Origin: Centroscyllium fabricii
Lineage: Eukaryota
NCBI GenBank assembly: GCA_051313645.2
Contig: JBNRSN020000017.1
Span: 38,750,001 to 38,814,000, forward strand
DNA length: 64,000 nucleotides
Direction of reading: 5' to 3'
Position 1 is the first letter of the stretch; every line of letters begins with the position of its first letter. A program made the translations under genes and the position numbers. The notes under the pieces were generated by a model, which saw only the letters and a program-made list of their open reading frames with translations, searched no databases and had not been told where the DNA came from. This document shows positions 59,962-64,000 of this stretch, one piece after another.

Positions 59962-60740
59962 GACACGGTGGCGCAGTGGTTAGCACTGCTGCCTCGCAAT
60001 AAGGAGCTCCTGGGTTTGAATCCTGCTTGGCCCGAGACACCTCTGCGTGGAGTTTGCATGTTCTCGGGCGGCATGGTGGCATAGTGGTTAGCACTGTTGT
60101 CTCACAGCACTGGAGACCCGGGTTCAAATCCAGCCTCGGGTACTATCTGTGTGGAGTTTGCACATTCTCCCCGTGTCTGCGTGGGTTTCCTCTGGGTACT
60201 CCGGTTTCCTCCCACAGTTCAAAGATGTGCGGGTTAGGTAGATTGGCCATGATAAATTGACCCTTAGTGTTAGGGGTATTGAATATGTGGGGTTACGGGG
60301 ATAGGGTGGGATATGTGTCGGTGCAGGCTCGATAGGGATCGAGTGATATGGGGAGAGGGTAGGGGCGGGGTGCTGGGTTTGGATGATCAGCCATGATCTC
60401 ATTGAATGGCGGAGCAGGCTGGAAGGGCCGAATGTCCTACTCCTGCTCCTATCTTCTGTGTTTCTGTGTTTCTCCCTGTGTTCGTGTGGGTTTCCTCCGG
60501 GTACTCCGGTTTCCTCCCACCTCCCAAAGACATGCAGGCTAGGTGAATTGGAGATATTAAAAATTGCCCATGAGTATGTGTGTGAGATATCATTCTTAGA
60601 GTTGGGGGTGTCGGGGGATGTGGGGAGAGGGTAGGAGGGGGTTGCTGGGTTTGGATGATCAGCCATGATCTCATCAAATGGCGGAGCAGGCTCGAAGGGC
60701 CGAATGGCCTACTCCTGCTCCTATCTTCTGTGTTTCTGTG
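59962..60740 (+). mobile_element. V-SINE with a second V-SINE (60066-60469) nested in its V-domain
   Basis: Host reads ..GGAGTTTGCATGTTCTC / CCTGTGTTCGTGTGGGTTTCC; TSD TTCTC at 60061-60065 and 60470-60474. Confidence 0.85.
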
Positions 60741-61381: not shown

Positions 61382-62554
61382 ATGGGGGCTCTACTTGCAG
61401 TCCTCCTCACGCTGCAGCATGACAGGGAGATGGAGCAGAGGCATCAAAGTCAAGCTGCTCACAGAGGGAGGAGGAGAAGGGGAGAAGGGCTCTCAGCAGG
61501 AGGCCTTACCCACCTAGGGTTTTCAGGGAGCACTGCACCTAAGCTAGGAGCAGTGGGTTCGGCAGCTCTGCTTCGCCAAGGAGGTGGTCACAGAACTTTG
61601 CCACCTCTTGGAACAAGACCTGCAGCCTCAGAGCAGGGCAACGATGGTTCTGCCAGTGGCCCTCAAGGTGACCGTGGCCCTGAATTTTTTCACCAGCGGA
61701 TCCTTCAAGGCTGGAACCGGCGACATCTCGCAATGCGCCGTCCATCGCTGCATCTGGGAAGTCACAGAGGCTCTGTACTCAAGGAGAAGGTACTTCATTG
61801 TCTTCTCTCTAAACAGAAAGAAGCAGGTGGAGTGTGCACGTGGCTTTGCCAGGATATCGGGCTTTCCCATGGTGAAGGGCGCCATTGACTGCACACACAT
61901 GGCTTTGTGGGCGCCGCATATCAATGCTGAGATGTACCATAACTGCAAAGGGTATCACTCACCTAATGTGTAGTTGGTGTGCGTCCACGCACAGCCCATC
62001 ATGATGGTGAATCCCCGGTATCCTGGCAGCAGTCATGATGCCTTCATCCTGAACCAGTCTGCTGTGCCAGCAATCTTCCAGCCACCACATTGAACCCGAG
62101 GGTGGCTCCTACGTGACAAGGGCTATCACTCTACAGTTGGCGGATGACTCTTCTCCGCAACCATGCGTGGCCAGTAATCATATAATGACAGCCATGCTGC
62201 TATGAGAAATCTCATCGAATAGACCATTGGGGTGCTCAAGCAATGGTTCCGCTGCCTTGGCCGCTCAGGAGGAGCTCTCCAGTATGCACAGGAGCGAGTG
62301 TCACAATTCGTGGTGGTGGGCTGCGTCCTCTACAACTTGGCCATCATGAGGGTGCAGTCCTTGCCACCACGGGTTCGGTGACCACCTCAGGAGGAGGAGG
62401 AGCAGGAGGAGGAGGAGGAAGAAGAAGAGGAGGAGAAGAGGAGCAGGAGGTGGAAGAGGAGGAGGAGGAGGAAGAGGAAGGGAGGAGGCAGCCTGCAAAT
62501 TCCCATTCTAGATGGACTGTCTGTCAGCATACCATCAGACTCTGCTTCCCCTGA
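61382..62554 (+). pseudogene. Harbinger (HARBI1-like, DDE) transposase pseudogene
   Basis: KVTVALNFFTSGSF..GFPMVKGAIDCTH..NCKGYHS..PGSSHDAFIL..DKGY..IE*TIGVLK..FRCL..LYN; several stops and frameshifts; Glu-rich (GGA)n tail. Confidence 0.9.
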
Positions 62555-62739: not shown

Positions 62740-64000
62740 ATTTCCGTAGTGTCTACCCCAGCGGCTGCAGCATGGCTGGTGGAAGGCTGCTGACTTTCAG
62801 TGGGGAACACTGCAGATGGCCTTGCAGGACGACCTCGAGCAGCTCTGGGCCTAGAAGGCCCGGCTGTAGACTGCACCACCTCGGCATGGGCAGCTGTAGT
62901 CTGGGCTGGCTGACGGGCAACTGCAATGGCACTGGTGGAGTGGCAGGGGTGGAAGTATGAATGCTGTCAACCCGAGAAAGGACAGCAGGGTCTTGCTCCA
63001 CGGAGCCAATGCCACTCCCCCGGGTGGCACCTCAGCATTCCTAGCCATCTGTTGGAGGAGAGATTGCCGGACTGCTGTGACGCTCTGCAAGCCCCTCTGC
63101 ACATTCATAAACCCAGCCACGATGGCAGTAATCTGAGCTTGCATGACAGAAGTCTGCAGCACTCAGTCATTGGGTCGCTTTCGCTTGTGCTGCACCGGAA
63201 GCTGCAGCATTGACTGTGGTAAACCACTTTGTATATATATGTATATATAACCAACGGCCTGTAACACTGTATATAGTTATGTGTGTACTGCTTGTCTGGG
63301 CATGCCCATGCTAACCCCACCTGTGACTCCTCCTCCCAGGACAGGTATATAAGTGACTGTCTCCCTCCCCCCATTCATTCCGGGAGCAGTCGACTAGCTG
63401 GTGCATGCCCAACCTTTTAGCTAATAAAAGCCTTTTGTTCACCTCATAACATCTCGTCTCCGAGGTCATTGATACGGTGTCAATTTTATTAGCTAAAAGG
63501 TTGGGCATGCACCAGCTAGTCGACTGCTCCCGTGATATGGTATCATTGACCATCACATCCAGCATCATGGTTGGGTCCACAAGTGCTCTGATGGAGTTGC
63601 CCATCACTTCCATCCTGGAAATCATGTGCTCCAAGCTCTGTGCAAAGCCCCGTGCAAGGTTTCAACTGGGCTCCTTCATGCTCCTTGACAGTGACAAGAG
63701 GCTCTCTGGCAGGCTTGCCATTGCTCCAAGTATTTCTGTGCGCATGCCCATCACCCTTCTTCTGTAGGCCGCCCCATCGAAGCCCTCATCTGAGTTTCCT
63801 GCAGCAGAACTCGTGTGCAACCTCGCCCTCCTGGGAGCTGGCACCTGCACTGCCCTTTCCTCCTGGCCTGGCTGCAGTCCACTCATGCCCAGTGACTCAC
63901 CACGTGCAGATCCTGCCTCTATAATACCCTCTAAAGTTCACGCTGTGCCATTTTCTGAGCTGGTGCCTGGAAGTGTCAGAGGGAGTGACGATCTCTCTTC
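62740..64000 (-). pseudogene. C-terminal part of the Harbinger second ORF (usually Myb/SANT-like), broken
   Basis: Convergent coiled-coil-like fragments (YRRRVMGMRTEILGAMASLPESL; LQTSVMQAQITAI); the Myb domain itself is not visible in the window. Confidence 0.55.
63215..63545 (+). mobile_element. Solo LTR with 49-bp internal fold-back and duplicated terminus
   Basis: TGTGGTAAACC..TATATAAG..AATAAA..GGTGTCA (63482), inverted copy 63484-63532, second end TGATATGGTATCA; TSD TTGAC at 63210-63214 and 63546-63550. Confidence 0.85.

Follow-up and report, generated by a model that had tools for sequence, protein, structure and literature searches.

Fold-back junctions of a shark Gypsy retrotransposon point to probable self-priming from an internal segment of its own RNA

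To our knowledge, self-priming of reverse transcription has been proven only for Tf1, and it is treated as a mark of the Tf1/sushi group and of two plant lineages. In retroviruses, when plus-strand strong-stop DNA reads through into the tRNA primer, the second strand transfer is impaired and aberrant jumps result. The available text of the sources describes the Tf1 self-primer as the first 11 bases, with an RNase H cut between bases 11 and 12 (PMC7175516), and lists a 5'-end self-primer, a pretzel structure and a chromodomain as traits shared within the Tf1/sushi group (PMC10085805, PMC4600332). About half of Tf1 cDNA is reported there to retain a primer-binding-site (PBS) copy at its 3' end (PMC11042837), and Tf2 to use alternative transcription starts (PMC5341516). 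Self-priming has also been predicted from LTR-PBS complementarity for Tcn1 (Gypsy) and the TAR/Houba/Osr-1 (Copia) plant lineages in the accessible part of PMC6317226, and Skipper is described as without LTR complementarity in that of PMC5006619.

The Gypsy element of Centroscyllium fabricii examined here is like Tf1, Tf2, Tj1 and the Tf1/sushi chromoviruses, as these are portrayed in the text available, in having a PBS complementary to its own LTR, no tRNA primer and a probable cut within an RNA duplex (PMC7175516, PMC4600332, PMC10085805, PMC11042837). It is also like Tf1 in that a DNA copy of the primer can remain on the plus-strand 3' end (PMC11042837, in the portion accessible). Several features set it apart. 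Whereas the Tf1 primer is formed by the first 11 bases, the paired segment of the shark element is probably +40 to +53, with the poly(A) hexamer as its end; unlike the 5'-end self-primer of the Tf1/sushi group, it would be preceded by about 39 nt of RNA, judging from arm ends and the TATA/initiator pair. The chromodomain is lacking. As for the three-duplex pretzel, it is not evident in the pairing predicted: at most one helix follows the presumed cut, and the families that favour it are mostly from other genomes. Tcn1 and TAR/Houba/Osr-1 share with it a self-priming predicted from LTR-PBS complementarity. They belong to different lineages, and the position of their primer relative to the start or the poly(A) signal is absent from the available text of PMC6317226, so that a similar geometry is possible. 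The retroviral case is alike in that over-copying of a primer leads to spoiled transfer and aberrant jumps, and differs in that the shark primer would be element RNA with no known modified base as a stop.

The locus lies near the end of the 64-kb stretch of DNA analysed (the window), whose features are given in Table 1. It is best explained as an aberrant product, now integrated, of a non-chromovirus Gypsy element with an R-complementary PBS. A preliminary description of this DNA had reported a complete LTR with TATA box, initiator, AATAAA, terminal tail and target-site duplication (TSD), and all of these positions agree with the sequence. The A of the initiator-like TCATTCC, at 63377, is LTR position 163. 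The inverted copy that had been called perfect is indeed so, with 63381-63429 and 63484-63532 complementary at 100% over 49 nt. The second LTR terminus, put at 11/13 identity, has 2 mismatches in 13 bases to the left LTR end; since GGTATCA is the terminus in all 29 other LTR copies fetched, each of the two ends departs from the usual copy by a single base. The clean TTGAC duplication claimed for the whole unit was likewise confirmed, because in 5/7 paralogues of the flanking repeat, which hold only one 5-bp site, the flanks meet with a gap of 0 when the unit and one TTGAC are omitted. That repeat is old, its copies being about 80% identical. Elsewhere in the window, a degenerate frame at 61548-61973, without a match in a Pfam search, contains a GAIDCTH-like motif that presumably recalls Harbinger transposases, and SINE-like tandem repeats occupy 60042-60740. 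ARAGORN found no tRNA genes in the 64 kb.

Table 1. Features of the aberrant LTR unit (window coordinates, forward strand).
Feature	Position	Strand	Basis
Target-site duplication TTGAC, left	63210-63214	+	Sequence; empty-site paralogues
Gypsy LTR, complete, 268 bp, TG...CA	63215-63482	+	Copies 98-99% identical; bounds elements of 4.5-4.6 kb
Predicted TATA box, TATATAAG	63346-63353	+	Sequence; equal spacing to CATT/CATA initiator in sister families
Putative transcription start, LTR 162-163	63376-63377	+	Arm ends in 26/100 loci; in sister groups 19/39 within 2 nt
Putative 5' RNA fragment, about 53 nt, self-primer or its source	63377-63429	+	Arm lengths
R segment, 14 nt, complementary to PBS; includes AATAAA (63423-63428)	63416-63429	+	Complementarity, covariation
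Putative cleavage site (primer 3' end), LTR 215/216	63429-63430	+	All junction patterns abut it; 8/22 truncated partners begin at 212-217 or equivalent
One-base spacer (A) between LTR end and PBS	63483	+	34 A and 1 T across 35 families
PBS-position sequence, as in normal elements	63484-63497	+	5,452 normal junctions
Inverted copy of R, 49 bp, LTR 215 back to 167; read as primer read-through	63484-63532	+	Arm pairing; class of 100 loci
att tail, second copy of LTR 3' end, 13 bp	63533-63545	+	13/100 loci with arm, att tail and TSD
Target-site duplication TTGAC, right	63546-63550	+	Sequence; empty-site paralogues

LTR searches and pattern counts were made in the 7.2-Gb genome. Among 40 candidates scored, 39 were other copies of the LTR, with 98-99% identity. 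The 29 other loci that were fetched comprised 11 in which a 5' LTR was followed by the self-complementary segment and the start of gag, 12 in which a 3' LTR followed a purine tract, and 6 solo LTRs, 5 of them with an exact 5-bp TSD. Copies with both LTRs measured 4.5-4.6 kb. These features (LTRs bounded by TG...CA, a polypurine tract (PPT) before the 3' LTR in 12/29 loci, a short TSD) are those of Ty3/Gypsy elements.

A tRNA PBS starting with TGG was found after the 5' LTR in 0/11 loci. The 14 nt in its place were complementary to the element's own R, as had been proposed from the locus alone, with the R partner ending at AATAAAA. The pattern for this normal LTR-PBS junction had 5,452 matches in the genome and its control 0. 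Changes in the PBS tracked changes in R, a covariation that the preliminary description had named as support for its proposal. Within the family, 40 normal copies were compared, 20 for each of two PBS variants, of which 4 were unscorable; a PBS A was accompanied by T in R at 18/19 scorable loci and a PBS C by G at 16/17. This reflects subfamilies and is therefore one change, not many. The spread of the pairing across families is stronger evidence. Across families of this genome, 60/74 gag-linked sites, representing 15 PBS variants, paired with their own LTR over at least 11 nt. From metagenome and genome collections 90 related loci were fetched, 49 with the start of gag in view. A perfect complement of at least 12 nt, placed one base after the CA, was present in 34/49 of these, with 20 distinct PBS sequences; shuffled sequences gave 1/1,960.

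The paired length varied from 12 to 19 nt across families, with its 3' end fixed at a poly(A)-type hexamer. In 35/35 families the duplex ended one base from the LTR end, a spacing that was itself a search criterion. The LTR-side partner ended in the hexamer and the next bases were GCC or ACC in 32/35 families. Across the 35 families, which are not independent, a helix was favoured whose first base directly follows the primer end (mean pairing 0.67 versus 0.34 shuffled, p 3e-5). It was weak in the family of the locus (0.53 versus 0.39), and folding of the whole leader gave a z of only -1.38. Extended pairing between R upstream of the primer and the start of gag reached p 0.08 in 15 families of this genome, with none in 18 others, and was set aside. 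The hexamer itself occurred as AATAAA, ATTAAA, GTTAAA or TTTAAA among the 35 families, and the bases following the putative cut often open a hairpin.

The fold-back at this locus is neither chance nor unique. Its junction pattern had 101 matches in the genome, compared to 0 for the reversed-pattern control. The corresponding pattern of a second subfamily (G) had 122, and patterns predicted for two sister groups had 772 and 123, again with controls of 0; the preliminary description had named a fold-back confined to one locus, like a normal TGG tRNA PBS in full-length relatives, as grounds for abandoning its proposal, and neither was found. Fold-backs made up roughly 2-4% of family junctions, a rough share as the patterns are unequal in length. 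In 90 loci from other collections, a small sample at such a rate, no read-through arm was accepted; the single arm match there sits at a rearranged locus.

Arm ends were analysed at 100 of the 101 loci, with a junction pattern blind to arms ending at 193-201. They fell at LTR 162 (15) and 163 (11), over 164-192 (42), at 158-160 (4), over 21-145 (6) and at base 1 (22), which corresponds to 1.45 ends per nt over 164-192 versus 0.06 per nt over 2-161. For the sister groups a stop at the initiator was predicted beforehand. Among 60 of their loci (30 of the 772 and 30 of the 123), 21 arms covered the whole LTR, and of the other 39, 19 ended no more than 2 nt from their own initiator A, whereas 16 fell short of it and 4 went beyond. 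The stop was blurred in the G subfamily, where 10 of 30 arms (from the 122) covered the whole LTR and 6 of the other 20 ended at 162-164 and 5 at 153-159. Given these stops at the initiator, +40 to +53 is the likely position of the paired segment, in contrast to the RNA 5' end used by Tf1. A C stood next to the arm in 17/26 ends at 162-163 (p about 5e-5), and at L099 and L108 it was without a match in the acceptor, which suggests copying of the cap. In the G subfamily the C followed only 2/6 arms, with no clear replication.

These arm ends bear on the route first proposed for the locus, in which the PBS-position RNA, paired with R, was extended to the RNA 5' end. The part that stood is the end point, with arm ends piling up at the predicted initiator; the extended strand did not, as the arm is best read as plus-strand copying of an R-derived primer. 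The arm had been placed close to the predicted start, and it is close, ending here at 167, 4 nt short of the main stop. The covariation and the pile-up of arm ends also support the earlier suggestion of a geometry different from Tf1, with the transcription start itself a prediction.

Beyond the arm, the sequence of many loci re-entered the element; the points of re-entry were scattered, and homology there was mostly 0-3 nt. At 13/100 loci, as at 63210-63550, the sequence resumed in the last 2-31 nt of the LTR and ended in a TSD; this count excludes TSD matches at L145 and L149 judged to be chance. At L065, L086, L096, L124 and L125 the arms jumped to a near-identical gag position (336-339 of the L051 copy), which marks either a hot spot or a propagated arm-carrying variant. 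Junctions were shared between L065/L086, L096/L124 and L296/L297, and copies within the family are related.

A second route for arms, by DNA snap-back or by priming on the 3' R, follows from the 22/100 arms that reach LTR base 1, three of which (L077, L095, L143) continue past the PPT. On reading the truncated LTRs that partner the whole-LTR arms, 8/22 began at 212-217 or its equivalent, the footprint that would be expected from a template cut at 215/216. The mismatch between arm and own LTR (32/1,945 versus 12/548) did not separate the arm classes and is uninformative on cis or trans priming. Whole-LTR palindromes, in which LTR 1-268 and the spacer are followed by inverted 215-1, occurred at L032, L074, L115, L127, L128, L374 and L381; they have two U3 ends and a 5-bp TSD and no coding sequence.

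Taken together, the readings in which these elements prime themselves are very probable. That which we favour, and consider likely, is an internal primer, by which an RNA end produced by a cut immediately behind the poly(A) signal, some 53 nt into the predicted transcript, would prime minus-strand synthesis, and the locus would derive from plus-strand copying of this primer followed by a jump to the LTR end. Two other forms of self-priming were weighed against it. The primer may be short (about 14 nt, trimmed or cut twice) or act in trans, from a second RNA or the 3' R, with arms made by plus-strand strong-stop DNA that primes anew on another RNA, at its uncut 5' R, and is extended to the cap. 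The arm-free majority of junctions, the spread of arm ends over 164-192 and the arms beyond the PPT would all be accounted for, at the price of an extra step, and we regard this version as unlikely. The non-Tf1 geometry would stand under it too, because the paired segment would still be internal to the RNA and have 215 as its 3' end. A productive start at about LTR 202, Tf1-like, would make the first 14 nt the primer and the arms products of rare upstream starts at 162-163. The arm-free normal copies would then be simply explained, and alternative starts of Tf2 are said to decide priming competence in the available text of PMC5341516. Against such a start, in each family of this genome inspected (by eye) a TATA box and initiator precede the primer end by about 53 nt, no TATA-like sequence occurs 30 nt before 202, and the length of the pairing varies while its 3' end is fixed at the hexamer. 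This makes it improbable.

The remaining accounts dispense with self-priming. In one of them, the R:PBS duplex only masks the 5' poly(A) signal, with priming by other means and arms formed by DNA snap-back. In its favour, the hexamer always lies within the duplex, the duplex is possible at the 5' LTR alone, and the whole-LTR arms resemble DNA snap-back. Against it, no alternative primer site can be seen, exactly one base separates the duplex from the LTR end in every family (the spacing being a search criterion), and snap-back does not account for the stop at the initiator. We give this account little credence. Masking of the poly(A) signal may instead be a second role beside priming. Rearrangement after insertion, or an assembly artefact, is scarcely credible given more than 1,100 junctions in four patterns with controls of 0, in the same register and with different flanks, and intact TSDs at the 13/100 tail-type and 5 whole-LTR loci. 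A later deletion could have shortened some arms or left a short att tail, possibly at this locus; four contig sets of unrecorded kind compared with it contained no piece reaching across.

The complementarity, the covariation and the junction maps are observed, and the internal-primer reading links them by a series of steps, each proposed from sequence. Transcription would start at LTR 162-163, and R from +40 to +53 would pair with the PBS. The RNA duplex would be cut at 215/216, after AAUAAAA, probably by RNase H, as in Tf1. Minus-strand synthesis would begin at the new 3' end and cross the spacer and U5, with transfer via the R remaining between 216 and the poly(A) site, and the primer copy retained by plus-strand strong-stop DNA would normally be no longer than about 14 nt. 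At a share of roughly 2-4% of integrated junctions, plus-strand DNA would have run on along the primer toward the cap. Because its overextended 3' end would no longer match the PBS, it would jump to a nascent minus-strand end, joining by 0-3 nt of homology (to a 13-nt end at this locus), and that minus-strand end would provide integrase with an att end. The model leaves the halt of read-through in most copies unexplained.

The fold-back is a real, recurrent feature, and the view that it marks a new form of self-priming outside the Tf1/sushi group is largely supported. A full-text literature search, which did not extend to the primary papers on Tf1, to Butler et al. 2001 or to Repbase and GyDB, found neither read-through fossils nor an internal primer at the poly(A) signal described, and the accessible text of PMC3601003, PMC6934838, PMC10886601 and PMC12471100 holds nothing on internal-primer geometry. 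We lean, with some reserve, towards the wider proposal that a widespread lineage of animal Gypsy elements primes itself in a second, independent way, in which one duplex masks the 5' poly(A) signal and sets an internal RNase H cut that yields a capped 53-nt primer, and that thousands of integrated misfires in host genomes map start and cut to the base. If true, self-priming would have a second solution in animals, used by a large non-chromovirus lineage whose internal primer ends at the poly(A) signal. This would raise the questions of which agent cuts the duplex, how the plus strand stops after 14 nt without a modified base and whether the duplex blocks premature polyadenylation. Integrated misfires would make start and cut sites mappable from genome sequence alone, and annotators based on the PBS would miss or mislabel elements whose PBS is self-complementary.

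Pfam searches of L055, from the family of the locus, and of a sister ORF in L045 identified zinc knuckle, protease, RT, RNase H and integrase in the Gypsy order (gag-PR-RT-RH-INT), and the best PDB match was Ty3 gag-pol. A Chromo match was found in 0/3 proteins and 0/29 aligned relatives (29 of 120 listed proteins). Among the matches listed, the nearest named proteins were from sharks and rays and the farther ones from Trichuris, sea anemone, damselfly and psyllid. With a single gag-pol ORF of about 1,200 aa and short LTRs, the element resembles the Cigr-1 clade of Ty3/Gypsy in ORF and LTR size and is a candidate member. PMC6238403 lists the clade, with "PBS" and "primer" absent from its main text as available, and PMC3670739, in the part accessible, also names Cigr clades but gives no data on priming. 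In the available text of PMC12471100, the TSDs of Saci2-like elements from cestodes are 4 bp long and their primers are given as tRNAs. Selgy, considered as a relative, proved to be an unrelated Selaginella clade. Insertions of sister families, often in opposite orientation, were nested beside the 5' LTRs at several of the 11 long loci (L045, L046, L047, L048, L050, L052, L054), which may reflect target preference or sampling. The RT motif reads YLDN in place of YxDD at L045:1664-5905 and L055:5768-7888.
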